64,000 bases of DNA. Source: Dehalococcoidia bacterium. GTDB taxonomy: Bacteria; Chloroflexota; Dehalococcoidia; Lucifugimonadales; JAGWBF01. The first letter of the stretch is position 1. The number at the start of each line of letters is the position of its first letter. Both the position numbers and the translations under genes were made by a program. Where the stretch lies: the NCBI GenBank assembly GCA_034423015.1, contig DAOUJG010000039.1, forward strand, positions 75,633 to 139,632. Reading direction: 5' to 3'. Of this stretch, positions 24,301 to 48,840 are shown in pieces. The notes under the pieces are model-generated. The model was not told where the DNA came from and did no database searches. It saw nothing but the letters and a program-made list of their open reading frames with translations.

Positions 24301-25338
24301 CTAGATGTTCAGGCGGACGTCCTGGTAGCTCGGGTCCTTCTCGTATATCTGGAGCCTGTGGTGCCGCGCCTCGACGATGACGATCTTGTAGTCGTCTCCC
24401 ACGTCCACCGCCACCGGCCTGCGGAGCAGGGTATCGGGGGTCATGTCCACCCTGGCCCTGGCCTTGACCAGGTCCGGGCTGCCCCGCAGGGTTAGCTGGA
24501 GCCACGGGGACACCTCAGTCGCCTCGCCGGTAATGGCCACGAGGAAGTCGCCGTCCTCGTCGTATACGTTCAGCCTGTCGTTGCCCCAGTCGCAGACGTA
24601 GACGTCCCCGTCCTTGTCCACGGCCACGCCAGCCGGGCGCCGCAGCTCTCCCCGGCCTGTACCCGGGCTCCCGATGGTGGACAGGTACTCGCCCTGGGGA
24701 GAGAACTTCTGGACTCTGTCGTTGCCCCAGTCCCCCACGTAGAACGCACCGTGCCGGTCCGTGGTTATGCCCCAGGGCCGGTCGAACCGGCCCTCCTCCG
24801 AGCCCGGTCCGCCCCAGGTGGAGACGTACTCGCCCTCCCTCGTAAACACCTGCACACGGTGGTTCAGGCTGTCGACTATGTGGAGGTTCTCGTCGGCGTC
24901 TATCGTCACGCCCGCCGGCGCGTCGAGCTCGCCCTCGCCGGTCCCGTGCCTGCCCCACCTGCCCAGGAAGGCGCCGTCCGTGGCGAACCTGTGCACCTGG
25001 TGGGTGGCCTGGTCGGTGACGAAGAGGGTCTCGTCGCCGTCCATGGCCAGGCCTCCCGGCCAGAGGAACTGGCCGTCCTGCAGCTTCTCCACCGTAAGCA
25101 CGTTGAAGCCCGTTCCGGGGCCAGGTACACCGATGTCCTGGACCCACTCGTGGTCCAGGGTGCATTTGGTGATCCGTGGAGAGTTGTTGCGCTCGTCGCT
25201 GGCGTTGACGACATAGAGGACGTCTCCCGACCGGACCAGGTCGGCCGGGTGCTGGAACGAGGTCATCGAGTTCCCGAAGCGGCCCATGGAGTAGAGGTAC
25301 GTGAAGGCCCGGTTGCCGGCAACGCGAGTAGTGGGCAC
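24301..25338 (-). CDS. NHL-repeat six-bladed beta-propeller protein, copy 1
   Basis: Repeated blades (...PAGVTIDADENLHIVDSLNHRVQVF, PWGITTDRHGAFYVGDWGNDRVQKF, PAGVAVDKDGDVYVCDWGNDRLNVY). GTG start behind gggagg. No signal peptide. Confidence 0.85.
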   Translation of the reverse strand: MPTTRVAGNRAFTYLYSMGRFGNSMTSFQHPADLVRSGDVLYVVNASDERNNSPRITKCTLDHEWVQDIGVPGPGTGFNVLTVEKLQDGQFLWPGGLAMDGDETLFVTDQATHQVHRFATDGAFLGRWGRHGTGEGELDAPAGVTIDADENLHIVDSLNHRVQVFTREGEYVSTWGGPGSEEGRFDRPWGITTDRHGAFYVGDWGNDRVQKFSPQGEYLSTIGSPGTGRGELRRPAGVAVDKDGDVYVCDWGNDRLNVYDEDGDFLVAITGEATEVSPWLQLTLRGSPDLVKARARVDMTPDTLLRRPVAVDVGDDYKIVIVEARHHRLQIYEKDPSYQDVRLNI

Positions 25339-25353
25339 CTCAACGACCTCCCG

Positions 25354-26724
25354 CTAGCAGAACTGGTACTCCTTGGTTGCCCCGATGAGCTGCAGCACCT
25401 TGGTCACCCGGTCCTCGAAGGCTTCCGGGGCGTCCTCGGCGTGTCCCACGACCTCATCGTACGTCTCCTCGCCCAGGCGCACCGAGCCCAGTAGCTCCAG
25501 GCAGCCGTCGACCAACTCGCGGGAGGAGCGGCCCTCGCGCTCTCCGAGCCTGGCGATGATGTCCCTGACGCCCGGCAGGCTGGGATTGCTGAGGCGGTCC
25601 GCGCAGAAGTTGATCCGCCGGACCAGGGAGCCGCCGTCGATCCACTCCTTGCCCGTGTGCCAGCCCTCGACGCTGGGAGGATTGAGCAGGTCCTGGCCCT
25701 GGTACACCGATTCGAAGGCAAGCTCCATTACGCCGTGTCTGAGCTGGCCGTACTCGCCCACCAGCCGCACGGTGCTGACCACCACCTCGGCCGGGCTCCT
25801 CACCTTGGCGAACCAGACGGCCTCGTCCTTGAAGAAGTCCGAGTTGAAGACGAAACGCAGGGTCTCGGCGATGTCGTAGTCCGAGGAGGCCAGGGCGCCG
25901 GCTATCGCCTCCACCGCCTGGGGGTCCCGCGGGGGGATGTCGTTCCAGCTTGGGACCTGGACCTCGTCGGCGACGAAGAAGTTGTAGAGATGGCGGGCGA
26001 TGAACCGCGACGTGGCCGGGTGCCTCACTATTATGTCGATGACGTCCTCGCCGTTGAACCGGCCGCGCTGGCCGAGGAACACCTTCTCATCGAAGTCGTG
26101 GTCCTCGGGCCTGTACTCGAAGCTCCACAGGTTGGCGCCGGGCACCTTGGGCGAGATGGTCCAGCCCGTGAAGGCACGGGCCGCCTCGAACACGTCCTGC
26201 TCGGTGTAGTTGCCCTGGCCCATGGAGAAGAGCTCCAGCAGCTCCCGGCCCCAGTTCTCGTTGGGCGAGCCCTTGTGGTTCTCGTTATTGTCCAGCCAGA
26301 AGATCATGGCCGGGTCCATGGCCAGACACACCAACAGCTCCCGGTAGCTGCCCATGCCGTAGCGCCGGAACATGCCGATCTGGTGGACCATCTGGGTGAT
26401 GTTGTCCACCTTGGCGTCCCCCGTGGCGAAGACCATGTGCCAGAACAGGGCCATCTTCTCTTCCAGGGGGCGCGGCGTGGTCAGGAGGTGGTACATGAAG
26501 TTGGACGCACCCAGGTAGGGAGAGGTGGGGTACTCGTGCCCAGGGTAGTACCGGTTCATGGCCAGCTCGTCGAATTCGGGAACGCCGTTGGCCCCCGGAT
26601 ATACCAGCTCGTCGACGGTGGCCTCGTAGCCCCGGGCGGCCCGGGCCTCCAGCTCGCCGTAGGACGCTCCGAACCCGGCGCGGCGCATCAGATGGGCCAT
26701 CAAGGCGATACGCTTGTCTGCCAT
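25354..26724 (-). CDS. DUF1800 family protein, copy 1
   Basis: IALMAHLMRRAGFGA, EEKMALFWH, DPAMIFWLDN..N.KGSPNENWGRELLELFSMG and ARAFTGW motifs. Start ATG 26724. Confidence 0.8.
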   Translation of the reverse strand: MADKRIALMAHLMRRAGFGASYGELEARAARGYEATVDELVYPGANGVPEFDELAMNRYYPGHEYPTSPYLGASNFMYHLLTTPRPLEEKMALFWHMVFATGDAKVDNITQMVHQIGMFRRYGMGSYRELLVCLAMDPAMIFWLDNNENHKGSPNENWGRELLELFSMGQGNYTEQDVFEAARAFTGWTISPKVPGANLWSFEYRPEDHDFDEKVFLGQRGRFNGEDVIDIIVRHPATSRFIARHLYNFFVADEVQVPSWNDIPPRDPQAVEAIAGALASSDYDIAETLRFVFNSDFFKDEAVWFAKVRSPAEVVVSTVRLVGEYGQLRHGVMELAFESVYQGQDLLNPPSVEGWHTGKEWIDGGSLVRRINFCADRLSNPSLPGVRDIIARLGEREGRSSRELVDGCLELLGSVRLGEETYDEVVGHAEDAPEAFEDRVTKVLQLIGATKEYQFC

Positions 26725-26869: not shown

Positions 26870-26898
26870 AAGATGACGGTTTCGTTTGCCTGTAGGGT
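26870..26898. repeat. left end of transposon: 8-bp target-site duplication AAGATGAC (26870-26877) plus IR-L ggtttcgtttgcctgtagggt (26878-26898)
   Basis: IR-L matches the reverse complement of 30229-30249 at 20/21 positions. The same 8-mer abuts the outside of both IRs. Confidence 0.9.
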
Positions 26899-26913
26899 TT
26901 AGGCCATTTTAGA

Positions 26914-26941
26914 CCCCACGGCACGGCGCCGTGCCGTGGGG
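26914..26941. terminator. perfect 28-nt palindrome (14-bp arms) just beyond the last ORF of the transposon operon
   Basis: ccccacggcacggc/gccgtgccgtgggg, 6 nt downstream of the stop at 26947 (minus strand). No clear U-tract. Confidence 0.45.
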
Positions 26942-26946
26942 GTTCT

Positions 26947-27138
26947 TTATCCCGGCTTCCGACGGGGGTTTGCCTTTACGGTTGGTTCCAAGCTATCGGA
27001 CACCTCAGCCATGAGGCGAGCATACTGCCATGCTAAAGCAACGTGTATGCGCGACATGGCCTCATTGCCGCCTTCATAGGCCAATATGCCGGCCAGTGCC
27101 TGTCCAGCAAAATAATCCATTCGTGATATAGGTGTCAT
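26947..27138 (-). CDS. hypothetical small protein (63 aa)
   Basis: MTPISRMDYFAGQALAGILAYEGG...; ATG 27138 behind ggggaga. No family recognised. Confidence 0.4.
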   Translation of the reverse strand: MTPISRMDYFAGQALAGILAYEGGNEAMSRIHVALAWQYARLMAEVSDSLEPTVKANPRRKPG

Positions 27139-27161
27139 CGTATCTCCCCTGATGTCTTCAC

Positions 27162-28265
27162 TCAGTTTCGTCCCGGCAGCCGTGGGCGCAGCTGCACCCA
27201 CTTCGGCGGCAGCTTCCGCTCCCGCTTTCGGCCCGACACCTTCGGCAGCAACGGCTTAGGCATCCGGCGTCTTCGCTTGCGTGTCCGGCCCTCTCCCTGG
27301 CCGGGAGTTGCTGGTTTCGGTTTCGATGATGTGGGCAGCTTCGGCTGCGGTGACTTCGGCCCTTTGGCCCGCCGCGTCTCCGTCGCAGCGACGACTTTTG
27401 GAGACGCGGCGTCGGCTTTTACCACGTCCGCCCACTCCCGGAATGGCGGCGTCACGTGCGCCACTTCCCCGGGCGTCTTGTTCCCAAGGCTGTGATGCTT
27501 CCTGAACAGGTTGTAGTTGAGCGTCCAGCCGTCCAGGTAGCGTTGGCCGCTCTCGATGCTATCAAGGCCTCGGAGGGTCTTGGTGCGGTCCCTGAATGTC
27601 CCTTGCAGACGCTCCGACAGGTTGTTGTTGACTTCGGCCCTCATGCCTTGGGACTGGACGTGCTCCGCCTCAGGGAGGATGTCCTTGATGGGCTTGATGT
27701 AGGCCCGCCACTTGTCGGTGGTGATTTTCTTCGGCGGCCCGTCCGCGGCAGCCGCGGCCTTCCGGATCGCGGCCCTGGCCGCGTGGCCGTCCCGCCTGTA
27801 GGACAGGTGCGAGGCGAGGATGTAACGGGTGTCCTCGTCCATGACGTTCCAGTTGTAGGCCTTCTTCCCCCCGACGTCCACGACCATCTCGTCGGCCACC
27901 CAATGCCCGCCGCCGGTCTTGGCCTTCTGGTCTTTCATCCCCTTGACGGCCTCGTCGGTGTAGGTCTTGACCCACTCGAACACCGTCGCCTTGGAGGGCT
28001 CCGGGATGTCGTACTCCTTCTCCAACCCTTCGGCTATCTGCTTGTACGACTTCCCGCTGTAGTAGTCCTGGATGGCGCTCCCCATGAGCTCGGCGTCCAT
28101 GCGCCGCCCCTTGCCCTTGCCGTTGGCCCGGAACTTGGTCTTGCAGGCCTTGCACATGTAGCGTTGCTGTCCGGCCTGCTTCCCGACCTTCACCACCTTG
28201 TCACAGGCGCATTCAGGGCAAGCCAGGGTGACGGTTCGGACGGTCGTTTCTTCGAATTGAGTCAT
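27162..28265 (-). CDS. IS6-family DDE transposase with N-terminal zinc-ribbon and long K/R/P-rich C-terminal tail
   Basis: CPECACDK...CKACKTKF zinc ribbon. DDE segments HWVADEMVVDVGGKKAYNWNVMDEDTRYIL, KITTDKWRAYI and NNNLSERLQGTFRDRTK parallel IS26 (WHVDETYVKV.., INTDKAPAY, NNVIECDHGKLKR). Confidence 0.8.
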   Translation of the reverse strand: MTQFEETTVRTVTLACPECACDKVVKVGKQAGQQRYMCKACKTKFRANGKGKGRRMDAELMGSAIQDYYSGKSYKQIAEGLEKEYDIPEPSKATVFEWVKTYTDEAVKGMKDQKAKTGGGHWVADEMVVDVGGKKAYNWNVMDEDTRYILASHLSYRRDGHAARAAIRKAAAAADGPPKKITTDKWRAYIKPIKDILPEAEHVQSQGMRAEVNNNLSERLQGTFRDRTKTLRGLDSIESGQRYLDGWTLNYNLFRKHHSLGNKTPGEVAHVTPPFREWADVVKADAASPKVVAATETRRAKGPKSPQPKLPTSSKPKPATPGQGEGRTRKRRRRMPKPLLPKVSGRKRERKLPPKWVQLRPRLPGRN

Positions 28266-28465
28266 GGGCTCTCCTGCAAGCGCTCCGCAAGAGGGTTGTC
28301 AGCACGTAGCGGGTACAAGGACTCCATAGTCTCGAGCCGCTTCATGATCTCCACCCACGCTTTGCGCGTATCGGGTGAACAGTTGATCAACGCCTGGAGC
28401 AACGCCTCGACTTGGCGGGTCATATTCACGGGCACGACCTTTGTAGTATTGCGAACTGACGCCAA
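28262..28465 (-). CDS. hypothetical small helical protein, translationally coupled (ATGA) to the transposase
   Basis: GC3 is about 73% in this frame versus about 40% in the overlapping frame across 28300-28460. TTG start is uncertain (internal ATG, MTRQVEALL...). Confidence 0.4.
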   Translation of the reverse strand: MASVRNTTKVVPVNMTRQVEALLQALINCSPDTRKAWVEIMKRLETMESLYPLRADNPLAERLQESP

Positions 28466-28910
28466 CGCCGCCGTCTTTCTTGTCCGACACGCGAAAGCCG
28501 ATATCGCCGACTCGGCGACAAAGCCACAGCATGTCTTCTTCAGTCCGGACGTGTACCTCTACTACATCAACCCCACGCTTCACCAACCTGTCCAGACAAG
28601 CCCGTTTCTGCGCCGTGGGAGGGCTGGTGACAACCACCTCGACAATCCGTACTGGCGTGTCGTCGTCCCCGTACATGATCAAGTCAGGGACGATGCCTCC
28701 CACGGAGTCCCACTCGCCGGGAATCTTCGTACGGGCCACCCCTGCTCGAATATCCACGTCATACGCACCCCCAGGGCTGGTTCGAATCCAGACCCCGGTA
28801 TCTTCGGTGCCGCGTCGCGTTATCTCGTCATACAGCAGGGCCACGGTGCGGGCGTGCAGGTATGACTCCGGAGCCCCCGCAGTGCCGACGTTCCTACGCA
28901 TGTCCACCAT
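28299..28910 (-). CDS. hypothetical protein with PD-(D/E)xK-nuclease-like core. The 3' third is probably not translated in this frame.
   Basis: IVPDLIMYGDDDTPVRIVEVVVTS...VDVVEVHV resembles a CoiA/TnsA-type nuclease core. ATG 28910 behind ggagg. The C-terminal 55 codons have low GC3 and overlap ORF 28262-28465. Confidence 0.35.
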   Translation of the reverse strand: MVDMRRNVGTAGAPESYLHARTVALLYDEITRRGTEDTGVWIRTSPGGAYDVDIRAGVARTKIPGEWDSVGGIVPDLIMYGDDDTPVRIVEVVVTSPPTAQKRACLDRLVKRGVDVVEVHVRTEEDMLWLCRRVGDIGFRVSDKKDGGVGVSSQYYKGRAREYDPPSRGVAPGVDQLFTRYAQSVGGDHEAARDYGVLVPATC

Positions 28911-28954
28911 CGTTGTACCTCCATTCTCATTCTGCGCCCGGTTTCGTTTGCGCA

Positions 28955-29329
28955 CTACGGGTTCACCCCCACCAAATGTTCGGACGCTCGCCGGATTGCA
29001 ACGCCGATCGGCGTCAAGACAGAGTCGCCCGGCACGCTCCGCCAGTACGTCACGATGTCCCCGGTGTCAGTAACGATTGTCGCGTCGCTCACTCCAGCGC
29101 CCAAGGTGAGCGTGTCACTGGCGGAGTCATAGCCCAGCGTGCCCAACGGGAGGTAGGCCGACGCGCCCATCACGTCCACACTCACCACGTGTGTGCCTGC
29201 GTCGTCGTCAAGACCGACCAGCACTCCAAGGTCATCCTCTAGGTGCGCGCACGTTACCTCGCGGTCGGCCTCGTGGGTCATAACCCGCAACACGTCGGCG
29301 TCCTGGTCGTACACTATTGTCAGCCCCAC
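28955..29329 (-). CDS. tandem DUF2283-domain protein (antitoxin-like)
   Basis: Two YD..aD.L motif domains (LTIVYDQDADVLRV...VSVDVMGAS; LGYDSASDTLTL...IGVAIRRAS). GTG 29329 behind ggagg, overlapping the upstream stop (GTGGGGCTGA). Confidence 0.6.
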   Translation of the reverse strand: MGLTIVYDQDADVLRVMTHEADREVTCAHLEDDLGVLVGLDDDAGTHVVSVDVMGASAYLPLGTLGYDSASDTLTLGAGVSDATIVTDTGDIVTYWRSVPGDSVLTPIGVAIRRASEHLVGVNP

Positions 29330-29730
29330 TCTCGTACCTCCACGTCCTCGAAGCGTCGCTCGAAGTAGGCCCGATTCCCCTCGCGCCATGCCACAGTAGC
29401 GTTCCTGTCCTGAAAGGCGTTCACGATGGTCGAATCGTCCATCGACACCACAACCCGCACCACCTTCCCCAGCTCCGCCACATAAGCCATGTAATTCCGG
29501 CTCGGTCGCCCTGTCCTGTCAACGTAGACTCCACTCACAAACCAATCGTCCAGCACCTTCGCCACGACCTTTCTGGACATGCCGCTGTGTGGACTGTCGA
29601 ACATGTGGCGAGAGATGGCGCGGGTCCGCCCTCCGGCATCCAGTCTACGCCCGTAGCCACAGCTTGGACAGCCGGGCCTAGTGCTGGGCGTCTGCTTGCG
29701 TCGACAGCCTGAACCGCATCTGTGGCTCAC
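29320..29730 (-). CDS. DUF4258-like protein (toxin-like partner of DUF2283)
   Basis: ...AISRHMFDS...GMSRKVVAKVL...GKVVRVVVSMDDSTIVNAFQ fits the DUF4258 pattern. The start is uncertain (a GTGA overlap with the upstream ORF at 29727-29730). Confidence 0.45.
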   Translation of the reverse strand: MSHRCGSGCRRKQTPSTRPGCPSCGYGRRLDAGGRTRAISRHMFDSPHSGMSRKVVAKVLDDWFVSGVYVDRTGRPSRNYMAYVAELGKVVRVVVSMDDSTIVNAFQDRNATVAWREGNRAYFERRFEDVEVREWG

Positions 29731-30212
29731 GCTCCTTCATCCTCTATACCGTCTTGCGCCCGTTTCCACTCCCATAGACGGCGTTCTATTTCCGGCCACT
29801 GTTTCTCGGCATCCTCGCCGCTTATGGCGATAATCAGATGGTCGCCGTGGGTTGCATGGAAGTCCATGTGGCTCTCGATCTCTGTTGCCCGGTCGTTGAG
29901 CCAAGCTGTCCTCTCTTCTACCTTTCGCATCGCCCTGTACGCCATGTAGCGGAAGACCCCGTAGTTCACAATGGCCAGCACGCATCCTATGGCCAGTAAG
30001 AACCCCGTGTGTTCTAGGGTTGCCGCCGGAATCCTATGTTCAAAGGCAACGCTCACCCCAGCAAATATCACGGCCAGTACACCGAACGGGGCCAAGAAAA
30101 GCCCGCATCCGACAGCGAGAGCAATCCCTGTCCCCATGTGATAGCCTGGCCTGCCCAGGCGCTCCTCTAGCAACTTCGCTGTCCCCGGCACCAGCTCCCA
30201 GTCCATACGCAC
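29727..30212 (-). CDS. hypothetical membrane protein (3 predicted TM helices plus acidic C-terminal domain)
   Basis: 161 aa with hydrophobic stretches GIALAVGCGLFLAPFGVLAVIFAGVSVAF and GFLLAIGCVLAIVNYGVF. First gene inside IR-R. Confidence 0.5.
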   Translation of the reverse strand: MRMDWELVPGTAKLLEERLGRPGYHMGTGIALAVGCGLFLAPFGVLAVIFAGVSVAFEHRIPAATLEHTGFLLAIGCVLAIVNYGVFRYMAYRAMRKVEERTAWLNDRATEIESHMDFHATHGDHLIIAISGEDAEKQWPEIERRLWEWKRAQDGIEDEGA

Positions 30213-30228
30213 ATCATATCACCCCCAT

Positions 30229-30257
30229 ACCCTACAGGTAAACGAAACCAAGATGAC
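30229..30257. repeat. right end of transposon: IR-R accctacaggtaaacgaaacc (30229-30249) plus 8-bp target-site duplication AAGATGAC (30250-30257)
   Basis: See the left-end feature for the matching sequences. Confidence 0.9.
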
Positions 30258-30364: not shown

Positions 30365-30407
30365 ACCGGCAGACCCCCTTCCGTAGCCGTCGCAAGGAGG
30401 TGTGGCC

Positions 30408-31961: not shown

Positions 31962-31994
31962 CCCCAGCGGCCAGACAGGTACAGGAGGAGACCC

Positions 31995-33584: not shown

Positions 33585-33613
33585 TTGACGCTCCTACGAA
33601 CTGGCTGTATCCT
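33585..33613 (+). promoter_or_regulatory. promoter candidate for SBP 2 (TTGACG-17-TATCCT)
   Basis: -35 at 33585-33590, -10 at 33608-33613, 40 nt upstream of ATG 33654. Confidence 0.4.
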
Positions 33614-33653
33614 AGTACGCGCTTGACTCGGATTTGATTCTGTGGAGGAAGCA

Positions 33654-35870: not shown

Positions 35871-35917
35871 GGCAATCCGATCGGTTGGTGGCCGCTGTGG
35901 CCGAAGAAGACCGGTCT

Positions 35918-37416: not shown

Positions 37417-37509
37417 GAAATCTCTGAACGAGGAGTGCTTCCTTCCGGACTAACTCGGCAGGGACTTGCTCAGGCCATTTCCAGGGGGAGACAGATGGAG
37501 GGGAGACAG

Positions 37510-38649: not shown

Positions 38650-38722
38650 GGGAGAGCACACGGTCGGGACGGGCGGCGTGGTAGGCTCTCCAAGAATGGC
38701 AGACCGGAGCGAGGGTACGTAG

Positions 38723-39715
38723 ATGGTCAGCGTGCACTTTGGCGTTACCAGCAGGGCGTTCAACTACTCGCACACCGTCGGGCGCATGACGTTCTTCGGC
38801 GAGGGGTTCAGGCACCCCATGGACATAGCCGTCGGCAAGGACGGCCGCATCTACGTGCCCAACCGGTCGAGGCAGGACAGACCCAACGGGGTCCGCGTGA
38901 CCGTGTGCACCGTGGACGAGGAGTTCCTGTACCAGTTCAGCGCCTTCGGGGCCGAAGACGGCCAGCTCACGTGGCCCGTCTCCATCGCCCTGGACAGCAC
39001 GGAGAACATCTACGTGGCGGACCAGTGGCTGAACCGGATAAGCATCTTCAGCAACGGCGGGGACTTCCTCGGCAAGTGGGGCACAGCGGGGAGCGGCGAT
39101 GGGGAGCTGGACCAGCCCTTTGGCATGAGATTCGATTCCCAGGACCATCTGTTCATAGTGGACAGCCGCAACGGCCGAATCCAGAAATTCACCAAGGACG
39201 GGCGCTTCCTGGCCAAGTTCGGGGAGCCGGGAAGCGGGCCGGGCCAGTTCGACCTTCCGTGGGGTATCGACTTCGACCGGGAGGGCTACCTGTACGTAGC
39301 CGACTGGAACAACCACCGGGTCCAGAAGCTCACCCCCGAGGGAGAGTATGTCTCCGAGCTCGGCATCCACGGCAGCGGCGCCGGAGAGTTCCACAGGCCA
39401 TCGGGAGTGGCCGTGGACGCAGACGGCGACATCTACGTGGCAGACTGGGGCAACCACCGTCTCCAGGTCTTCACCTCCGACGGCCGTCACATAAGCACGT
39501 TCACCGGAGACGCCACCCTCTCCAAGTGGGGCGAGCTATCCCTGGAGGCGAACCCGGACAAGGCGTGGCAGCGCAACCTGGTGAGAGACTTCGAGCCGGA
39601 GAGACGGTTCTGGAACCCGGTGGCGGTGGCTGTCGACCCCGAGAACCGGGTGCTGGTCGCCGACTGCATGCGCCACCGCCTGCAGGTCTATCGTAAGATA
39701 TATGCGTCCCGATAG
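38723..39715 (+). CDS. NHL-repeat beta-propeller protein, copy 2
   Basis: Blades PFGMRFDSQDHLFIVDSRNGRIQKF, PWGIDFDREGYLYVADWNNHRVQKL and PSGVAVDADGDIYVADWGNHRLQVF. N-terminal AFNYSHTVGR motif is shared with the other copies. Confidence 0.85.
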   Translation: MVSVHFGVTSRAFNYSHTVGRMTFFGEGFRHPMDIAVGKDGRIYVPNRSRQDRPNGVRVTVCTVDEEFLYQFSAFGAEDGQLTWPVSIALDSTENIYVADQWLNRISIFSNGGDFLGKWGTAGSGDGELDQPFGMRFDSQDHLFIVDSRNGRIQKFTKDGRFLAKFGEPGSGPGQFDLPWGIDFDREGYLYVADWNNHRVQKLTPEGEYVSELGIHGSGAGEFHRPSGVAVDADGDIYVADWGNHRLQVFTSDGRHISTFTGDATLSKWGELSLEANPDKAWQRNLVRDFEPERRFWNPVAVAVDPENRVLVADCMRHRLQVYRKIYASR

Positions 39716-39839
39716 GATGTCCCGGACCGATGGCCGAGGCTTCCGAGACCGTCGCTGAAACGGAAGGGCCTCGAAGCGGAGCCCGCGCGACCCGGGGCCC
39801 TAGGAGAGCCCGGGCCGCCTCCAGACAGATGGACTAGCA

Positions 39840-40802
39840 TTGAAAACGTACATCATCAAACGCCTGCTGCTGTTCCCGCCTACCGTGGTGATAGTCACCC
39901 TTCTGGTGTTCTTCATCATGTGGATCGTGCCTGGGGACGCCGCGATAGTCATCCTGGCCGGCGAGGGGGGAGAAGCGGGCGTCAACCAGGAGGACTTGGA
40001 GAGGCTCAGAAAGCAGCTGGGGCTGGACAGGCCCGTTTACATTCAGTACGGGGACTGGGTCTGGGACCTGATCAGGGGAGACATGGGGGACTCGGTCTAC
40101 TACAAGATACCCGTCATGGACGAGCTGAAGGGGAAGTTCCTGGTCACCCTGGAGCTGTCCGTAATGGCCATCCTGATGTCCGCCATCCTGGCCATCCCCA
40201 TCGGGGTACTCTCCGCCGTGAAGCAGGACACCATCTTCGACTACGGGGTGCGGACGTTTACCCTGGCCGGCATCGCCCTGCCCAGCTTCTGGGTGGGCAT
40301 ACTCATCGTGGCGGCCCTCACCTTCTGGTTCGATTGGGCGTTGCCTCCGCTGCAATACCAACCGCCTTGGGACGAGCCCTTAACGAACCTCCACCAGCTC
40401 ATCTTCCCGGCGATGGCGCTGGCCTTCGGGGAGCTTGCCTTTGCTGCCCGAATCACGCGCTCCACCATGCTGGAGGTGATGCGGGACGACTACGTCAGGA
40501 CCGCCAGGGCTAAGGGGCTGTCGGAGCTGGCGGTGATCGGCCGGCACGCCCTGAAGAACGCCCTGCTGCCCGTGGTCACCGTATCGGGCTGGCAGTTTGG
40601 CCGTCTTCTGGGGGGTGTGGTGGTCATCGAGCGGATATTCCTGGTGCCCGGGGTAGGCAGCTTTCTCATAGACGCGATAGTCCACCGGGACTACACCGTG
40701 ATCCAGGCGATCATGGTGATGGTGGCCGGGCTGATCCTGGTCCTGAACCTGCTGATCGACGTCCTGTACGGCTGGCTGGACCCCAGGATCCGGTATGCGT
40801 AA
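39840..40802 (+). CDS. ABC transporter permease (DppB/OppB-type), set 2
   Basis: IIKRLLLFPPTVVIVTLLVFFIMWIVPGD, DDYVRTARAKGL. TTG start. Confidence 0.88.
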   Translation: MKTYIIKRLLLFPPTVVIVTLLVFFIMWIVPGDAAIVILAGEGGEAGVNQEDLERLRKQLGLDRPVYIQYGDWVWDLIRGDMGDSVYYKIPVMDELKGKFLVTLELSVMAILMSAILAIPIGVLSAVKQDTIFDYGVRTFTLAGIALPSFWVGILIVAALTFWFDWALPPLQYQPPWDEPLTNLHQLIFPAMALAFGELAFAARITRSTMLEVMRDDYVRTARAKGLSELAVIGRHALKNALLPVVTVSGWQFGRLLGGVVVIERIFLVPGVGSFLIDAIVHRDYTVIQAIMVMVAGLILVLNLLIDVLYGWLDPRIRYA

Positions 40803-40820
40803 GCCGAGCTCACGGTCAGG

Positions 40821-41732
40821 TTGGCAATGATAGGTCAGAGAGCCGCAGCTTTCCCCAACGCCCGGTCGGCCCTGTCCTGGCTGCCCGGGGCGGCGGGCCA
40901 GGTAGCCGCGTTCTGCAAGAGGAAGCCCCTGGGAGCCCTGGGAGGGATCCTGATTACCTCCATGGGTCTGATCGCCATCCTGGCCCCGATCATATCGCCC
41001 CACGACCCCTACGAGGTCTACGTGGACTACGTGGAGAACCCTCCCTCCAAGACCTTTCCCCTGGGCACCGACAACCTGGGGCAGGACGTCCTCAGCCGGC
41101 TGTTTCACGGGGCACGCCTTTCCCTCAGGGTGGGACTGCTCAGCGTGCTGATCGGCATAACCGGCGGCTTCGTGCTGGGCATCGCCACCGCCTACGCGGG
41201 AGGGGCCGTCGATCTCGCCTTCCAACGGCTCGTCGATTCGATGATCGCCTTTCCCAGCGTAATCCTGGCCATGGCCATCATGGCCGTCCTGGGGGCCTCG
41301 GTCACCAACGTGGTCATAGCCCTGGTGTTCGTGTTGATACCGCCCGCGGTGCGGGCCATCCGCTCCCAGGTGCTCAGCCTCAAGGAAATGGACTACGTGC
41401 TGGCGGCCAAGGCCGTCGGGTGCTCCCCCCTCCGGATCATGATCCGGCACATCGTGCCCAACTGCTTCGCCATCTACATCATCCTGGCCACAATCACCCT
41501 GGGGTTTGCCATCATCGTGGAGGCGTCTCTCAGCTTCCTGGGGATAGGCGTACCAGCAGGCACGCCCACGTGGGGAGGCATGCTGACCCAGGCGTCCCAA
41601 CAGCACATCAAGACGGCTCCATGGGTAGCCATAGCTCCGGGCGTAGCGATATCGGTGGTGGTGTTCTCGGTCAACTGGCTGGGCGATGCCCTGCGGGACG
41701 TGCTGGACCCGCGGCTCCGGGGCGCCGACTAG
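40821..41732 (+). CDS. ABC transporter permease (DppC/OppC-type), set 2
   Basis: LAPIISPHDP, multi-TM, GDALRDVLDPRLR C-terminus. Start is TTG 40821 or ATG 40827. Confidence 0.88.
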   Translation: MAMIGQRAAAFPNARSALSWLPGAAGQVAAFCKRKPLGALGGILITSMGLIAILAPIISPHDPYEVYVDYVENPPSKTFPLGTDNLGQDVLSRLFHGARLSLRVGLLSVLIGITGGFVLGIATAYAGGAVDLAFQRLVDSMIAFPSVILAMAIMAVLGASVTNVVIALVFVLIPPAVRAIRSQVLSLKEMDYVLAAKAVGCSPLRIMIRHIVPNCFAIYIILATITLGFAIIVEASLSFLGIGVPAGTPTWGGMLTQASQQHIKTAPWVAIAPGVAISVVVFSVNWLGDALRDVLDPRLRGAD

Positions 41733-44809: not shown

Positions 44810-45127
44810 GATGTCTCCTCTCGTTGCACCTCGATTCCGGGTGACTCCAGGGTCCTGCCCGCCCGCCGAACGAGAACCGCGTGAAGACCGGTCCCAGGCT
44901 CTTCCAATTATAGCCCAGTCCAGGGCCCGGTGGACGGGCGGCAAGGGTAGGGTCTTGCTTGTCCAGTCGCGGCGGCCGTGGTGTAGAATAACCGTGACGC
45001 GACGGGTGTCGGCCTGCCCGGAAGGGGAGGGCTGTACATCCAGGCGGCTACAGGAGTAAAATCAGGGTGCTGGACGGTTGCCGTCGTGCGGATGGCCGGT
45101 GTCCTCAGATAATTGGAGGAGAGCCAG

Positions 45128-46531
45128 ATGGCAGACAACGATATCGCTCTAATGGCCCACCTGATGCGACGGGCCGGGTTCGGCGCCCGGTACGAAGAGC
45201 TGGAGGCCCGGGCTGCCAAGGGGTACGAGGCCACCGTCGAGGAGCTGCTGAACCCCGAGGAGCATTCCAACGGCCTGGAGCTGGACCTGGCGGAACGGTA
45301 CTTCATCGAGTGGAACCAGTTCACCAGGGGCGTCCCCGAGTACTTCGCCTGGCGCATGATGAACTCCAGGGCCCAGCTCGAAGAGAAGATGATCCTCTTC
45401 TGGCACGGCATCCTGTGCACGGCTGACAGCAAGACCCAGAGCTACGCCACGTCCTACGTGGAGCTGGAGATGTTCCGCCGCTACGGTATGGGCAGCTTCC
45501 GGGACCTGCTGGTGGAGATCTCCAAGGACCCGGCCATGGTCTACTTCCTGGACAACTGCCTGAGCCACAAGGGGGCCATCAACGAGAACTATGGACGGGA
45601 GCTGCTGGAGCTGTTCTCCATGGGCGTGGGCATGGACGACCAGTTCAACTACACCGAGGACGACGTAAAGGAGTGCTCCCGGGCCTTCACCGGCTGGACC
45701 ATCGCCAACTCCATCCCGACGCAGCCCTACGGGCCCTACGAAGCCAGGTTCGTCTACAACCCGCTGGACCACGACGACGGGGTGAAGACCTTCCTGGGCG
45801 AGACCGGGCGCTTCAACGGCGAGGACGTCATCGACATCATCTGCAAGCAGCCGGCCACGGCCCGGTTCATCTCCCGCCACGTGTACAGCTACTTCGTGGC
45901 CGACGAGGCCCAGGTGCCCCTATGGATGGAGACCCCGCCCCGGGACCCGGACACCATCAAGATGCTGGAGGAGGAGTACTTCCGGTCGGGCTACGACATC
46001 CGCTCCATGCTGCGGGTGCTGTTCCACTCGGACGCCTTCAAGAACGCCCGCTTCTCCAGGGTAAAAGGGCCAATCGAGACGGTGATGGGAACCATGCGCC
46101 TGATAGGGGACTGGACGTCTCCCAAACCCGGGTTCGAGTTCATCTTCGACGAGATGAAGTTCATGGGGCAAGAGATACTGAACCCGCCCTCGGTGGAAGG
46201 CTGGCACACGGGCAAGGAGTGGATCGACGGCGGCACCCTGGTGCACCGCATCAACTTCACCGCCGACTTCGTGGGCGACACGAGCTACCCGGGCGTGCAG
46301 AGTATAGTCAACAGGCTGGCCTCGGAGGCACCCACCCTCTCGGCCGATGGGCTGGTGGACGGATGCCTGCGGCTGCTGGGACACTACGAGCTGGACGCCG
46401 AGACCCGGGAGATGCTCGTGGCCCGCGCCCAGAAGGGCGGCGACCTGCGCACCGACAGCGAGGAGTTCCCCCAGAGGGTCAGGCAGATGCTGCAGCTGAT
46501 AGTTGCCACGAAAGAGTACCTTTACGCCTAG
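45128..46531 (+). CDS. DUF1800 family protein, copy 3
   Basis: MADNDIALMAHLMRRAGFGA, EEKMILFWHG, DPAMVYFLDN..SHKGAINENYGRELLELFSMG, SRAFTGW. ATG 45128 behind ggaggag. Confidence 0.8.
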   Translation: MADNDIALMAHLMRRAGFGARYEELEARAAKGYEATVEELLNPEEHSNGLELDLAERYFIEWNQFTRGVPEYFAWRMMNSRAQLEEKMILFWHGILCTADSKTQSYATSYVELEMFRRYGMGSFRDLLVEISKDPAMVYFLDNCLSHKGAINENYGRELLELFSMGVGMDDQFNYTEDDVKECSRAFTGWTIANSIPTQPYGPYEARFVYNPLDHDDGVKTFLGETGRFNGEDVIDIICKQPATARFISRHVYSYFVADEAQVPLWMETPPRDPDTIKMLEEEYFRSGYDIRSMLRVLFHSDAFKNARFSRVKGPIETVMGTMRLIGDWTSPKPGFEFIFDEMKFMGQEILNPPSVEGWHTGKEWIDGGTLVHRINFTADFVGDTSYPGVQSIVNRLASEAPTLSADGLVDGCLRLLGHYELDAETREMLVARAQKGGDLRTDSEEFPQRVRQMLQLIVATKEYLYA

Positions 46532-46609: not shown

Positions 46610-47746
46610 ATGACGGCCAACAAGAAAGACCCGGTGCTGGTGGTGCTGCAGCTGTCGGGGGCCTACGACGCGCTGAACACGGTCATCCCGTACGAAGACC
46701 CCCTGTACATGGACTACCGCCCGGTGCTGAAGGTGGAGCCTGAGGAGGTCCTGCCGCTGGACGACAAGGTTGTGCTCAACCCGGCGATGGCGCCGGTGAA
46801 GGAGCTGTACGACCAGGGGAAGGTTGCCGTCATCCAAGGCATCGGCTATCCCAACCCCATCCGCTCCCACTTCCGGTCGATGGACATCTGGCATACCGCG
46901 GTGCCCGAGAAGATGGTCACCGACGGCTGGCTGGGCCGGGCCATCCGGGAGCTGGACCCCCACAAGGAGAACGTGCTGACGGCCGTGAACTTCGGCCGGG
47001 GACTGCCCAGGGCCCTGGCGGCCCCGGGAGTGTCGGTGGCATCGGTGGGCAACTTGGAGACCTACGGGGTGCTGACCGGGATCAAGGGCCAGGACCAGAG
47101 GACGGACGCCCTGGACGCATTCGCCAGGATGTACTCGCCCCTGATCGGCAACGGCCCGGTGAACGACTACCTGTCCCAGACCGGACTGGACGCCCTGAAG
47201 GGCGCCGACATCCTGGCAACCGCCCCAGACGCGTACTCCTCCACCGTGGAGTACGCCGGGGACCCATTCTCCCAGTGGGTCAAGAACATCGCGCAGGTGC
47301 ACCTGGCGGAGTTCGGCACACGCATCCTCTACACCGCCCTGGACCCGGGGGCGTTCGATACCCACGCCAACCAGGCAACGGCGTTCCCCAAGCTGTGGTC
47401 CGAGGTGTCCAACGCGGCGAGCGACCTGTACCACGACCTGAAGGAGCACGACGCCAACCAGGAGGTGGTGATCCTGATGTTCACCGAGTTCGGCCGGCGC
47501 GTGCAGGAGAACGGCTCGGGCACGGACCACGGCTCGGGCGGGGTGGCCTTCGTAATGGGGGACGCGGTCAAGGGCGGGCTGTACGGGGAGTACCCCTCCC
47601 TGGAGCCGTCCAAGCTGGACGAAGGCGACCTCAGTTGGAACAACGACTTCCGGGGGATGTACGCGACGCTGCTGGAGAAATGGATGGGCATGGAGCCCCA
47701 GCCCATTCTCGGAGGGTCCTTCGAGCAGTTCGACCTCATCAAGTGA
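46610..47746 (+). CDS. DUF1501 family protein, copy 2, no Tat/Sec leader
   Basis: VLVVLQLSGAYDALNTVIPY, GIGYPNPIRSHFRSMDIWHT, FTEFGRRVQENGSGTDHG. Confidence 0.78.
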   Translation: MTANKKDPVLVVLQLSGAYDALNTVIPYEDPLYMDYRPVLKVEPEEVLPLDDKVVLNPAMAPVKELYDQGKVAVIQGIGYPNPIRSHFRSMDIWHTAVPEKMVTDGWLGRAIRELDPHKENVLTAVNFGRGLPRALAAPGVSVASVGNLETYGVLTGIKGQDQRTDALDAFARMYSPLIGNGPVNDYLSQTGLDALKGADILATAPDAYSSTVEYAGDPFSQWVKNIAQVHLAEFGTRILYTALDPGAFDTHANQATAFPKLWSEVSNAASDLYHDLKEHDANQEVVILMFTEFGRRVQENGSGTDHGSGGVAFVMGDAVKGGLYGEYPSLEPSKLDEGDLSWNNDFRGMYATLLEKWMGMEPQPILGGSFEQFDLIK

Positions 47747-47802
47747 GCCGGCCGGGTGCGGGCTCGGCCGTCGGGCGTGAACCAAGAACTAGCGAGGAAG
47801 AG

Positions 47803-48840
47803 ATGGTCACTCAGATACCGCCTTTAACCTTCGAGTACAGCCACACCATCGGGCGGCAAGAGGTCCGGAGTGGGAACGGGTTCTTCTTCCCGGTGGCCAT
47901 AACCAAGGACGAGGAGGGCCTGCTGTACGTGCTGAGCCGGGGCACCGAGACCCCTGCGTTCTTCCCATGTAAGCGGGTGACGGTGTTCACGGTGGACGAG
48001 GATCTGGTCAGGGACTACGGGCAGAAGGTCCCCCCGGAAGAGGCGACCAGGGAGATGGCCCCGGACGGCAGTTTCATGTGGCCCACCTCCGTCGCCCTGG
48101 ACTCGGAGAACAACACCTACGTGTCCGACGAGTGGCTGGACCATATATCCGTATTCGACAAGGATGGGAAGTGGACCGCCAAGTGGGGCACTCCCGGAGA
48201 CGGCGACGGCGAGATCGACCGACCCTCGGGCCTGGCGTTTGACAAGAACGACAACCTGTACCTGGTGGACAGCCGGAACAGCCGGGTCCAGATATTCACC
48301 AGGGACGGCCGGTTCCTGGACAAGTGGGGCCGTAAGGGCGACGGCGACGGCGAGTTCGACATGCCGTGGGGCATCGAAATCGACGGGAACGGGGACGTGT
48401 ACATAGCCGACTGGCGGAACGACCGGATCCAGAAGTTCGCCCCGGATGGCCGGTTCCTGATGAAGTTCGGCACGTCGGGCCAGGGGGACGGGGAGTTCAA
48501 CCGGCCCACGGGAGTCGCCGTCGACGGCGAGGGGATCATCTACGTCACAGACTTCAAGAACGACCGGCTCCAGGTGTTCGACCCAGAGGGCGGCTTCATC
48601 ACCAAGCTGACGGGCGAGGCCACCCTGTCCCAGTGGGGAAGGGAGCGGGTGGAGCTGGACCCGCTGGCGTCCAAGGGCCGGAGGGTGGCCCAGGGCCTGC
48701 GGGAGCGCGAGAAGGTGTTCCAGGGGCCCATCGCGGTGGAGGTGGACGACGAGGACCGGGTCTTCGTGGTGGAGTGCGCCCGCCACCGGGTCCAGGTGTT
48801 CCACAAGCAGTCCGCCATATTCCAGGGGGGGCTGCTGTAG
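47803..48840 (+). CDS. NHL-repeat beta-propeller protein, copy 3
   Basis: MVTQIPPLTFEYSHTIGR...; blades PSGLAFDKNDNLYLVDSRNSRVQIF, PWGIEIDGNGDVYIADWRNDRIQKF and PTGVAVDGEGIIYVTDFKNDRLQVF. ATG 47803 (ORF-track start 47275 rejected). Confidence 0.85.
   Translation: MVTQIPPLTFEYSHTIGRQEVRSGNGFFFPVAITKDEEGLLYVLSRGTETPAFFPCKRVTVFTVDEDLVRDYGQKVPPEEATREMAPDGSFMWPTSVALDSENNTYVSDEWLDHISVFDKDGKWTAKWGTPGDGDGEIDRPSGLAFDKNDNLYLVDSRNSRVQIFTRDGRFLDKWGRKGDGDGEFDMPWGIEIDGNGDVYIADWRNDRIQKFAPDGRFLMKFGTSGQGDGEFNRPTGVAVDGEGIIYVTDFKNDRLQVFDPEGGFITKLTGEATLSQWGRERVELDPLASKGRRVAQGLREREKVFQGPIAVEVDDEDRVFVVECARHRVQVFHKQSAIFQGGLL

Follow-up and report, generated by a model that had tools for sequence, protein, structure and literature searches.

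The gene order DUF1800–DUF1501–NHL is a real conserved unit that recurs across loci above chance, and the proteins of this clade lack export leaders family-wide. Their closest known relatives form the widespread Tat-exported DUF1800–DUF1501 pair of Proteobacteria and other phyla (COG5267/COG4102), which has the same two families in the same order. We examined the cassette in a window of 64,000 nucleotides from a marine-type Dehalococcoidia (SAR202-like) genome. The explanation we favor, with a rough probability of 0.45, is that the cassette encodes a module of several subunits that works in the cytoplasm as a metallo-hydrolase or transferase and derives from the Tat-exported pair.

Three copies of the cassette in the window

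Using Pfam and open reading frames (ORFs), we identified three cassette copies in the window: two trios, copies B and C, and a DUF1800–NHL pair, copy A. Copy B, on the plus strand, encodes a DUF1800 protein of 468 aa (36010..37416), a DUF1501 protein of 379 aa (37510..38649), in which the Pfam domain begins at residue 10, and an NHL propeller of 330 aa (38723..39715). Copy C, also on the plus strand, encodes proteins of 467 aa (DUF1800; 45128..46531), 378 aa (DUF1501; 46610..47746) and 345 aa (NHL; 47803..48840). Copy A is on the minus strand and consists of a DUF1800 gene (456 aa; 25354..26724) followed after 15 nt by an NHL gene (345 aa; 24301..25338), with no DUF1501 gene between them. All eight genes are ORFs with a high GC3 coding signal, and the original prediction had their coordinates and strands right. 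It had also called for confirmation of the families with profile models, and the assignments hold, with scores far above the cut-offs. DUF1800 (PF08811, cut-off 26.1 bits) scored 358.6, 337.1 and 321.4 bits in copies B, C and A; DUF1501 (PF07394, cut-off 27 bits) scored 81.8 bits in copy B and 83.8 bits in copy C; and NHL (PF01436, cut-off 20 bits), a six-bladed propeller, scored 144.9, 113.3 and 93.0 bits in copies B, C and A. The gaps within cassettes measure 15, 93, 73, 78 and 56 nt, matching the predicted range of 15-93 nt. The N-terminal motifs read as had been quoted; only the copy A NHL protein, with F-T-Y-L-Y-S-M-G-R, is a loose fit. For the copy C NHL gene, the start at 47803 agrees with the family N-terminus, and a longer ORF from 47275 overlaps the DUF1501 gene off-frame and is Arg/Gly/Pro-rich.

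Identity between the window copies is 39–70%, and judged from their sequences cassettes A, B and C are old paralogues. The copy B DUF1800 is 100% identical to the homologue P0241, and its 90%-identity cluster includes P0511 (MCE2405587.1), named as a protein of a Dehalococcoidia MAG. The nearest relatives of the copy C DUF1800 are 81-84% identical and lie in loci L080 and L058. As in the window, several cassette copies are found in other loci.

DUF1800 is present in every cassette variant

In a set of loci that come mostly from one class, Dehalococcoidia, so that shared ancestry inflates the counts, DUF1800 adjoined NHL in 79 of 80 NHL-seeded loci, and the exact order DUF1800–DUF1501–NHL was found in 66 of these 80 and in 68 of 82 DUF1501-seeded loci, most of the remaining DUF1501-seeded loci being permuted or cut by a contig end. 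Co-occurrence of NHL with DUF1800 and DUF1501 is seen far beyond this contig, whether the search starts from NHL or from DUF1501, and extends to more than one phylum. A three-component system had been proposed, but DUF1501 is missing from copy A, as it is from at least 7 of 80 loci elsewhere in the NHL-seeded set, and we conclude that it is not an obligatory cis component. The pair-only architecture of copy A was found in L001-L003, L021, L072, L077 and L081, and L004 has three pair-only cassettes in tandem.

These variants bear on an alternative in which DUF1800 and NHL are the functional core, DUF1800 being the real enzyme or binder and DUF1501 a trans-acting accessory or maturation factor. 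DUF1800 is the sole member common to Tat-type pairs, leaderless trios and pair-only cassettes; the pair-only form recurs; and pair-type DUF1800 proteins partly cluster, with the nearest neighbor also being pair-type in 14 of 19. DUF1800 has about 60 universally invariant residues, and many polar ones are invariant in both clades: H11, R14, R15, W93, H94, N153-E154-N155, R158, E159 and E162, as well as Y176-E178, D180, H216-D217, K221 and D234. Copy A keeps every residue that is invariant in the family alignment. The DUF1800 of this clade has extra loops relative to that of the Tat-type pairs, and a clade-specific insertion, QVPxWxxxPPRDP, arrives together with the NHL partner. However, DUF1501 is the most conserved of the three families (approximately 75% identity across more than 100 clusters) and retains all candidate catalytic residues, which would be odd for a dispensable accessory. 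DUF1800, moreover, is like no known enzyme fold: the AlphaFold2 model of the copy B protein (pLDDT 83.7) is all-helical and found no match among PDB folds. We consider a DUF1800–NHL core unlikely.

DUF1501 has conserved candidate active-site residues

The residues of DUF1501 that are invariant in both clades are D20, S86-H87, D250, H252 and D306-H307 (copy B numbering). Each motif comes after a predicted beta-strand, as in alkaline-phosphatase-superfamily enzymes, and their order (an Asp after beta-strand 1, a Ser at a helix N-terminus, and D-x-H and D-H after later strands) would mirror the metal and nucleophile sites of that superfamily. The motifs are therefore candidate metal ligands and a candidate nucleophile, in a mapping made by analogy. 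The model of the copy B DUF1501 is of low confidence (pLDDT 60.7), and all of its best Foldseek matches, weak ones (E ~1e-3, TM 0.3-0.4), were to this superfamily: LtaS, sulfatases, NPP/autotaxin and alkaline phosphatase. To this extent, DUF1501 resembles alkaline-phosphatase-superfamily folds. It differs from solved members of the superfamily in showing no detectable sequence similarity to them and in having an obligatory-looking helical partner, and the sulfatase motif C/S-x-P-x-R is absent on direct reading of the sequence. Neither DUF1800 nor DUF1501 matched any solved structure by sequence, and the literature has no biochemical function on record for any protein of either family.

The NHL family (~328 aa) gave 6588 matches at E<=1e-10 among 8000 candidates scored, a count that takes in the generic NHL-repeat superfamily. 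The window NHL proteins have six blades in common with TRIM71, TRIM2/3, Brat, the PknD sensor and peptidyl-alpha-hydroxyglycine alpha-amidating lyase (PAL). Unlike these known propellers, they are stand-alone proteins of ~330 aa with their own N-terminus (F-x-Y-x-H-T-x-G-R) and a specific C-terminal segment, and their genes adjoin DUF1800 at nearly every locus. A PAL-like lyase role had been suggested; its one testable feature fails, because the family alignment has no invariant histidine for the PAL Zn site, and this role is not supported.

The cassette could also be a non-enzymatic binding, scaffolding or regulatory assembly, with NHL a binder of the TRIM or PknD-sensor type and DUF1501 a pseudo-enzyme. 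The best NHL matches are indeed to binding domains, those of TRIM71 (E = 3.5e-105), TRIM2/3 and the PknD sensor (PknD, E = 3.9e-21), with PAL at E = 6.6e-11, and the invariant NHL residues are structural repeat residues, among which no catalytic set is obvious. Yet more than 60% sequence divergence has left the Asp, Ser and His motifs of DUF1501 intact, as is usual for an active enzyme, and a high copy number in catabolic neighborhoods suits metabolism better than regulation. We judge such an assembly improbable.

The cassette proteins lack export signals

No Sec, Tat or lipoprotein signal and no transmembrane segment was found in the three families, either in the window or in approximately 150 homologues of each. 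For six of the eight cassette genes, an in-frame stop is found 0-26 codons before the start: directly upstream for the copy B NHL, 6 codons upstream for the copy C DUF1800, 19 for the copy A DUF1800, and 26 for the copy C DUF1501, with no start codon between. The two possible N-terminal extensions, six residues for the copy B DUF1800 and that of the copy C NHL, contain no hydrophobic stretch. None of the eight proteins exceeds a Kyte-Doolittle maximum of 1.31 (over 19 residues), whereas controls encoded in the same window (the lipoprotein SBP, a TM-anchored PQQ-repeat protein and a permease) score at least 2.0. Among homologues of all three families, the conserved domain starts a median of 9-13 codons after the upstream in-frame stop, and longer upstream extensions almost never have hydrophobic stretches. 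The original claim that the proteins are leaderless is borne out with alternative starts taken into account.

Outside the clade, the nearest DUF1501 relatives show 36–46% identity and are 400-460 aa long, and of 17 sampled, 13 carry a twin-arginine motif of the RRxF[LIM] type with a hydrophobic stretch after it. Their conserved domain starts at about residue 40-55, compared with about residue 7 here. In the three outside relatives with readable context, DUF1501 lies in a DUF1800–DUF1501 pair whose DUF1800 is itself leaderless. Downstream sequence can be read in two of these loci, and there the pair is not followed by an NHL gene; the third contig stops 210 nt past the DUF1501 gene. In two divergent leaderless DUF1501 members (56% and 47% identity), an NHL gene again lies downstream.

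We hypothesized that the cassette proteins could instead reside outside the cytoplasmic membrane, by non-classical export or hitchhiking, and pre-process substrates for the family-5 binding protein. This would agree with Tat export of the canonical DUF1501 relatives, with the place of copy B between SBP and permease genes, and with the abundance of DUF1800 proteins, perhaps of another clade, and of SBP5 proteins in an Entotheonella vesicle fraction (PMC12981691). The family-wide lack of signals argues against it, since exported proteins in the same window show theirs clearly and hitchhiking requires one signal-bearing partner, which none of the three is. An extracytoplasmic location is very unlikely.

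Genomic context and linkage

The genes around the cassettes in the window are catabolic: amidohydrolases, amidases, PuuE-like deacetylases, hydantoinases, luciferase-like monooxygenases and SBP5 transporters. Upstream of copy B is a family-5 solute-binding lipoprotein gene (SBP_bac_5, PF00496; 33642..35870, plus strand) with a lipobox, LLGALLAVFVVGAAC, and a promoter-like site ahead of it at 33585-33613. Directly downstream of copy B are two ABC permease genes (BPD_transp_1, DppB-like and DppC-like; 39840..41732, plus strand; PF00528, PF19300, PF12911), so that the predicted position of copy B between the two was confirmed. Scanning the plus strand from the SBP gene to the first permease gene revealed no terminator-like site, and SBP_bac_5 and copy B are probably in the same operon. 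No ABC ATPase gene was among the window ORFs scanned. Copy C had been described as flanked by amidases: one is upstream (43382-44944, minus strand), but the downstream one (50691-52100) is 1.85 kb away, past an Mrr-like nuclease gene. The described divergence of copy A from two amidohydrolase genes (30402-33545) holds only if an intervening 3.4-kb IS6-like element (26878..30249), which we regard as context outside the system, is a later insertion. The element has 26-nt terminal inverted repeats (26878-26903 and 30224-30249; 88% complementary) and a transposase gene (27162-28265, minus strand), and GC content drops within it.

Across the 80 loci, a family-5 transporter lies within 8 kb of the cassette in 14 and is a direct same-strand neighbor in 7; in these 7, as in window copy B, the cassette is part of an SBP5-permease operon or follows it directly. 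The link to family-5 transporters, though real, holds for only ~10–18% of loci, and the original proposal that the cassette acts on substrates of these transporters is weaker than claimed. The flanking genes are otherwise heterogeneous. We conclude that the cassette stands on its own and is no fixed part of a transporter or amidase pathway, and that its flanks allow no substrate to be named.

The idea that adjacency is inherited synteny or an assembly artefact, with three functionally unrelated genes, draws on the Dehalococcoidia bias and is close to refuted by the many non-orthologous sites per genome with unrelated flanks, linkage that outlasts permutation of gene order (L022, L054, L151, L158, L165), presence of the cassette in Entotheonellia and a Nitrospinota MAG, the age of the paralogues, and independent retrieval from genome and metagenome collections. 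The permutations and the presence in Entotheonellia favor a functional link over inherited synteny.

Relationship to known systems

The DUF1800 and DUF1501 genes have been treated as an operon of unknown function (PMC5122149). The window DUF1501 has all invariant motifs in common with that of the Tat-exported pair, and DUF1800 its ~60 invariant residues. The cassette differs in the missing twin-arginine signal, the earlier domain start, the third gene, the extra DUF1800 loops and the several copies in the window. PVC-superphylum genomes have DUF1501 modules with PSCyt1/PSCyt2/PSD1, some with a PSCyt1/WD40 protein (Kamneva et al. 2012, PMC3542564). Like the cassette, these combine DUF1501 with a large helical partner, occur in many paralogous copies per genome and, in their most complex clusters, include a beta-propeller protein. 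DUF1800 residues 237-307 matched PSD1 and PSD2 weakly (E = 0.016 and 0.22), the PSD1 likeness being below threshold. In contrast to the cassette, PVC modules have signal peptides or Tat motifs, cytochrome-c CxxCH domains and a WD40 rather than NHL propeller; the three window families have no heme motif.

A 69%-identical NHL homologue is labelled 'YncE' by JGI, and homologues of the other families are labelled DUF1501 and DUF1800. We take COG3391, COG4102 and COG5267 to be the families named YncE, DUF1501 and DUF1800. These COGs are among the 50 most abundant categories in a 2020 SAR202 pangenome (Saw et al., PMC6946804) and appear to be the same three families as the window cassette. That study gave only COG-abundance correlations, with no operon, localisation, Tat kinship or functional proposal. 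The system had been called undescribed; its COGs were already listed, but the operon, leader loss and NHL gain appear undescribed in the literature.

A model for the cassette

Taken together, we favor a cytoplasmic metallo-hydrolase or transferase module with the following history. In the ancestral pair, a DUF1501 with an alkaline-phosphatase-superfamily fold would have carried the twin-arginine signal, and a signal-less helical DUF1800 presumably left the cell with it as part of a pre-folded complex. In the Dehalococcoidia/SAR202 clade, also represented in Entotheonellia and the Nitrospinota MAG, the Tat signal is absent and an NHL gene would have joined the operon; without the signal, the complex would stay in the cytoplasm. 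We suggest that catalysis falls to DUF1501, which would work as a metal-dependent hydrolase or transferase through a Ser nucleophile; its substrate may be a phospho-, sulfo- or similar ester of a small organic compound that the cell imports. DUF1800 would serve as the obligate helical partner of DUF1501, with NHL as a third subunit for substrate binding or for scaffolding the complex. The paralogues in each genome may have different substrate specificities, like other catabolic paralogue expansions of SAR202. We conclude that the cassette, not so far an explained system, is a good target for function discovery.

Family assignment of the cassette genes

The window has a G+C content of about 65%, and because of its strong third-position GC bias the gene calls were clear. 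Pfam bore out the cassette as the original prediction had described it, with all eight genes found where it had placed them and all three family assignments above the Pfam gathering scores. DUF1800 genes lie at 25354-26724 (copy A, − strand), 36010-37416 (copy B, + strand) and 45128-46531 (copy C, + strand); DUF1501 genes at 37510-38649 (copy B, + strand) and 46610-47746 (copy C, + strand); and NHL propeller genes at 24301-25338 (copy A, − strand), 38723-39715 (copy B, + strand) and 47803-48840 (copy C, + strand). The 15-nt gap between DUF1800 and NHL in copy A is too small for any DUF1501 gene. The DUF1800 proteins (PF08811/COG5267) scored 358.6, 337.1 and 321.4 bits against a gathering score of 26.1, and the match spans model positions 1-418 of 419, which is the whole protein. 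The DUF1501 proteins (PF07394/COG4102) scored 81.8 and 83.8 bits against a gathering score of 27, modest values because this leaderless clade is divergent from the seed sequences. The NHL proteins scored 93-145 bits with PF01436, with three to four repeats above threshold per protein, and also matched the six-bladed-propeller model PF17170.

Between copies in the window, identity was 54-60% for DUF1800, 70% for DUF1501 and 39-48% for NHL. Relatives in other genomes reached 92% for the copy B DUF1501, 74% for the copy B NHL and 81-84% for the copy C DUF1800. The copies tested are therefore far closer to proteins of other genomes, and we conclude that the triplication is ancient and not a recent tandem duplication.

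Members of the 90%-identity clusters of the copy B proteins are annotated merely as "DUF1800/DUF1501 domain-containing" or "NHL repeat-containing", and the literature searched gives no function for DUF1800 or DUF1501. Homologues of the three window proteins carry the JGI names YncE, DUF1501 and DUF1800, which we take to correspond to the COGs in Saw et al. We found no description of the operon, the leader loss or the NHL partnership in the literature beyond the COG listing of that study. Its passage on the COG-category correlation matrix also names Dpp-type transporter COGs (PMC6946804). A second study reports DUF1800 proteins as abundant in the proteome of an Entotheonella vesicle fraction (PMC12981691).

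The cassette is a conserved operon

We collected related loci in two independent searches. The first, a scan of a genome collection with an NHL-family seed, returned 80 loci, nearly all from Dehalococcoidia, SAR202 or other Chloroflexota MAGs and one from a Nitrospinota MAG; their gene content was scored with home-made HMMs. DUF1800 adjoined NHL in 79 of these loci, and the exact order DUF1800–DUF1501–NHL was present in 66. The second search used a DUF1501 seed in a metagenome scan and, together with two Entotheonellia contigs, yielded 82 loci. The exact trio was found in 68 of them, and the remainder were mostly permuted or ended by a contig edge. The co-occurrence of NHL with DUF1800 and DUF1501 that the original prediction expected outside this contig was thus confirmed in both sets. 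Several of the NHL-seeded loci held only a DUF1800–NHL pair, like copy A, and one related locus (L004) held three such pairs in tandem. Such pairs speak for the main rival explanation, in which DUF1800 and NHL would be the functional core and which we consider less likely than the reading we favour.

Permuted orders included DUF1501–DUF1800–NHL, DUF1800–NHL–DUF1501 and NHL–DUF1501. The trio also occurred in Entotheonellia, a different phylum-level lineage, and in divergent members of the clade, and the genes flanking the cassette were very diverse. The permuted orders, the tandem pairs, the trio in another lineage and the diverse flanks argue for functional coupling and not inherited synteny. 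Taken together, we conclude that DUF1800–DUF1501–NHL is a conserved operon, with adjacent, leaderless genes on one strand that recur across genomes.

Some loci carried additional genes. In one subclade (L024, L025, L045, L051 and L083), a short-chain dehydrogenase gene (PF13561) lies between DUF1800 and DUF1501. In the two Entotheonellia loci (L084 and L085), a gene for a TetR-family regulator precedes the trio and BREX genes (BrxA, BrxB, BrxC) follow it; the BREX adjacency is probably coincidental. Scanning with the PADLOC defence-system models gave no match for DUF1800 or DUF1501 and one chance-level match for NHL (E = 0.004), and an anti-phage defence reading was rejected on this negative scan.

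When 139 upstream neighbours were tallied by Pfam family and 577 flanking proteins were clustered, no universal fourth cassette gene emerged. The neighbours were only clade-specific: a 115-aa protein, PF02621, MoCF_biosynth, a polyprenyl synthetase and an HpnH-like radical SAM protein. The conserved protein of about 115 aa is encoded beside the cassette, in one orientation or the other, at 24 of the 162 related loci (for example L006:9080-9436 and L009:9098-9445, with 22 further loci), and has the pattern YWPRVKE...PGIH.YYW...MP.RGPF...WID.GMP. Its C-terminus gave weak, sub-threshold matches to the end of a cytochrome-c domain (PF13442, E = 0.02-0.14), and the CxxCH motif is absent. We found no credible copy of this family in the window, where the sole match covers 29 residues at 63701-63850 (E = 0.0014). 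This neighbour, possibly a fourth partner confined to one subclade, recalls the PSCyt-DUF1501 link of PVC bacteria.

The cassette proteins are predicted to lack export signals

The original prediction held that none of the cassette proteins has an export leader, and named longer, leader-bearing starts as evidence that would overturn it. In-frame stops lie 0-26 codons 5' of the start in six of the eight cassette genes (26 codons for the copy C DUF1501), and the possible N-terminal extensions of the remaining two contain no hydrophobic stretch. The highest 19-residue hydropathy in any cassette protein was 1.31. As a comparison, the lipoprotein solute-binding protein (SBP), the membrane-anchored PQQ-repeat protein and a permease of the window all reached at least 2.0, and proteins that are exported or membrane-bound can therefore be recognised in this organism. 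The twin-arginine (Tat) signal of canonical exported DUF1501 is not present in the DUF1501 proteins of the window; in copy B the Pfam domain begins at residue 10 of 379. We considered whether H-L-x-R-R-A-G-F-G at the N-terminus of DUF1800 could be a Tat motif and rejected it: the Pfam domain starts there (position 1 onward), the motif is found in all members of the DUF1800 family, and it is followed by a polar helix with no hydrophobic region.

We extended the survey to 143-159 homologues per family, drawn from 162 related loci. Counted from the upstream in-frame stop, the conserved domain began after a median of 9-13 codons across families (9 codons for DUF1501, 154 homologues), and the minority of homologues with longer upstream room showed essentially no hydrophobic segment. 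The predicted lack of leaders thus held in the window and across the homologues, and the whole DUF1800–DUF1501–NHL family is, as judged from these reading frames, leaderless.

Relation to the exported DUF1800–DUF1501 pair

An exhaustive search with the copy B DUF1501 returned 13,423 representative clusters. The leaderless clade is reduced to a few representatives, of 375-382 aa, and its next relatives are 400-460 aa long with 36-46% identity. Of 17 outside relatives sampled, 13 carry a twin-arginine motif of the RRxF[LIM] type with a hydrophobic stretch behind it. The genomic context was readable for three Tat-type relatives (L166, L172 and L174), and all three are plain DUF1800–DUF1501 pairs. 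No NHL gene follows in the two with readable downstream sequence; the third contig stops 210 nt on. NHL does lie downstream of two divergent DUF1501 proteins that lack a leader (56% and 47% identity). In this small sample, leader loss and NHL presence go together, and by sequence comparison this large clade has dropped its Tat signal and acquired NHL as a partner.

In the three Tat-type pairs only DUF1501 has a twin-arginine signal, and DUF1800 begins directly at its conserved domain. Such a distribution of signals suggests export of DUF1800 as a DUF1501 passenger, a Tat 'hitchhiker' in a pre-assembled complex, which would mean that DUF1800 and DUF1501 form a complex. We did not find a statement of such co-export in the literature examined.

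Structural features of the three proteins

The DUF1501 model (pLDDT 60.7) was built from a shallow alignment (73-98% identity) and was used for fold class only. Its best Foldseek matches in the PDB were exclusively LtaS, sulfatases, NPP/autotaxin and alkaline phosphatases, all weak (E ~1e-3, TM 0.3-0.4) and with no residue-level alignment to a solved enzyme. Across the leaderless and Tat-bearing clades, D20, T24, S86-H87-F88, W94, D250, H252, Q255, E293-F-G-R-R297, N301 and D306-H307 are invariant. Each Asp/Ser/His group (D20, S86-H87, D250/H252, D306-H307) follows a predicted beta-strand, a placement that in this low-confidence model is as in active sites of the alkaline-phosphatase superfamily. 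Enzymes of that superfamily have an alpha/beta core in which a metal-binding Asp follows beta-strand 1, the nucleophile sits at the N-terminus of a helix and Asp-His ligands come behind later strands, and the invariant DUF1501 residues come in that order relative to the predicted strands. A formylglycine-dependent sulfatase was ruled out, since the C/S-x-P-x-R motif is absent throughout the DUF1501 alignment, where the conserved segment reads G-Y-P-N-P-x-R-S-H-F-R-S-M, and Pfam gave no Sulfatase match even at E<=10.

The DUF1800 model is all-helical and of good confidence (pLDDT 83.7). Foldseek against the PDB found no fold match for it, returning chance-level matches only (helical membrane proteins, TM ~0.1). 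Among all PDB chains, single-sequence searches found no match to DUF1800 or DUF1501, nor did a profile search with DUF1501, and NCBIfam has no model for either family. About 60 DUF1800 residues are invariant, Tat-type partners included. The protein also resembles, below threshold, the PSD1 and PSD2 domains of planctomycetes, which are known DUF1501 partners in PVC bacteria (PMC3542564).

The NHL protein is a canonical six-bladed propeller with full-length PDB matches to the TRIM71 NHL, and is closest to the TRIM71 and PknD-sensor types. By eye, its sequence shows one degenerate blade at the N-terminus and five repeats resembling D-x-x-N-x-R-[IVL]-Q. Peptidyl-alpha-hydroxyglycine amidating lyase (PAL) carries at its propeller centre a Zn site of three His together with a catalytic Tyr and Arg. 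In a 15-sequence family alignment, the invariant NHL residues are those of the repeat scaffold and no His is invariant or near-invariant, and therefore a PAL-like zinc site is ruled out. The PAL match (E = 6.6e-11, against E = 3.5e-105 for TRIM71) reflects generic repeat similarity, and the PAL-like lyase chemistry suggested by the original prediction found no support. The SGL lactonase model PF08450 scored 40-53 bits, overlapping a much stronger NHL match of the same clan, and NCBIfam gave only a sub-threshold match to ScyF.

Genomic context in the window

Copy B is embedded in an operon with the order SBP5 (family-5 SBP) – cassette – permease – permease. A promoter-like site precedes its SBP gene, and from that gene to the first permease gene the scan detected no terminator-like site on the + strand. 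Across the 80 NHL-seeded loci, seven cassettes immediately follow an SBP5-permease-permease set on their own strand (as also in related locus L001), and such transporter genes occur within 8 kb in 14. The association with family-5 transporters that had been proposed is thus real, in a minority of loci. A fixed role upstream of the amidases was not supported; cassette neighbours differ between genomes, and therefore no pathway can be assigned from context.

Both Dpp-type operons (16701-20755 and 33642-41732) consist of a binding protein and two permeases. No ABC ATPase gene was found in them or among the window ORFs scanned, and related loci L001 and L003 likewise lack one, which suggests shared ATPases encoded elsewhere in this lineage. 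The first SBP5 gene (16701-18746) looks frameshifted: a lipoprotein signal peptide (MGRSWLTSFRWWILAPLLTLLVLAAAC) starts from 16672 in another frame than the mature SBP5 domain, and the affected stretch is 16672-16900. The gene is either a pseudogene or the product of a MAG sequencing error.

The window as a whole is a catabolic island dense in paralogous enzymes typical of SAR202. Its enzymes include four amidases (11646-13475, 14397-16067, 43382-44944 and 50691-52100), three TRZ/ATZ-type amidohydrolases, two PuuE-like deacetylases, two luciferase-like monooxygenases, hydantoinase A and B, gamma-glutamyltranspeptidase, a molybdenum hydroxylase, an SGL lactonase, an enolase-superfamily enzyme and two glyoxalase-fold proteins. 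A lower-GC, IS6-like element of about 3.4 kb (26878-30249) is inserted between copy A and the amidohydrolase genes (30402-33545), which without it would be divergent and some 300 bp apart. The element is bounded by 26-nt inverted repeats (26878-26903 and 30224-30249, 88% complementary) and contains a transposase gene (27162-28265, − strand), whose product has an N-terminal zinc ribbon, and ORFs at 28299-30212 that have no Pfam match. The gene that immediately follows the copy B permeases, in the same direction, encodes a second, unrelated propeller (41888-43309); this PQQ_2/BamB-like protein has one TM helix and, at its N-terminus, a Cys-rich (CxxC...CxxC) segment. Copy C and the next amidase gene are separated by a 1.85-kb spacer of lower GC content that holds an Mrr-type restriction endonuclease gene (49511-50326, − strand), and the small ORFs near the endonuclease gene gave no family match.

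Proposed function and significance

The cassette is a variant of the known but uncharacterised DUF1800–DUF1501 kind. In the explanation we favour, it would encode a multi-subunit assembly that stays in the cytoplasm and derives from the exported DUF1800–DUF1501 complex. DUF1501 would act as a metal-dependent hydrolase or transferase, NHL would be an added binding or scaffold subunit, and the assembly would have diversified into many paralogues for catabolism. We give this explanation as a whole a probability of about 0.45; we are highly confident of its descriptive part, and its mechanistic part is tentative. A bolder and, in our estimate, unlikely version is that the cassette encodes an unrecognised cytoplasmic metalloenzyme of three subunits (DUF1800 with a novel fold, an alkaline-phosphatase-like DUF1501 and the NHL propeller), whose many paralogues would carry out an as yet undescribed type of bond cleavage on imported, degradation-resistant dissolved organics. 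If true, one of the largest unexplained gene-family expansions in the globally abundant SAR202 would represent a new class of enzymes with a bearing on carbon turnover in the ocean.

DUF1800 and DUF1501 are large families spanning many bacterial phyla, and the three genes behave as one unit across related loci. A "DUF pair" thus becomes a testable hypothesis, a soluble, cytoplasmic and hence easily expressed three-protein complex with candidate catalytic residues. The interest of the cassette rests on this direct testability and on its abundance in a globally important clade. Knowing its function would also offer a first way into the exported relatives found in Proteobacteria and Planctomycetes. 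In the dark ocean and in sponges, SAR202 and related lineages are abundant, and the three COGs count among their most expanded families, so that knowledge of their function would fill a gap in models of recalcitrant organic-matter degradation.
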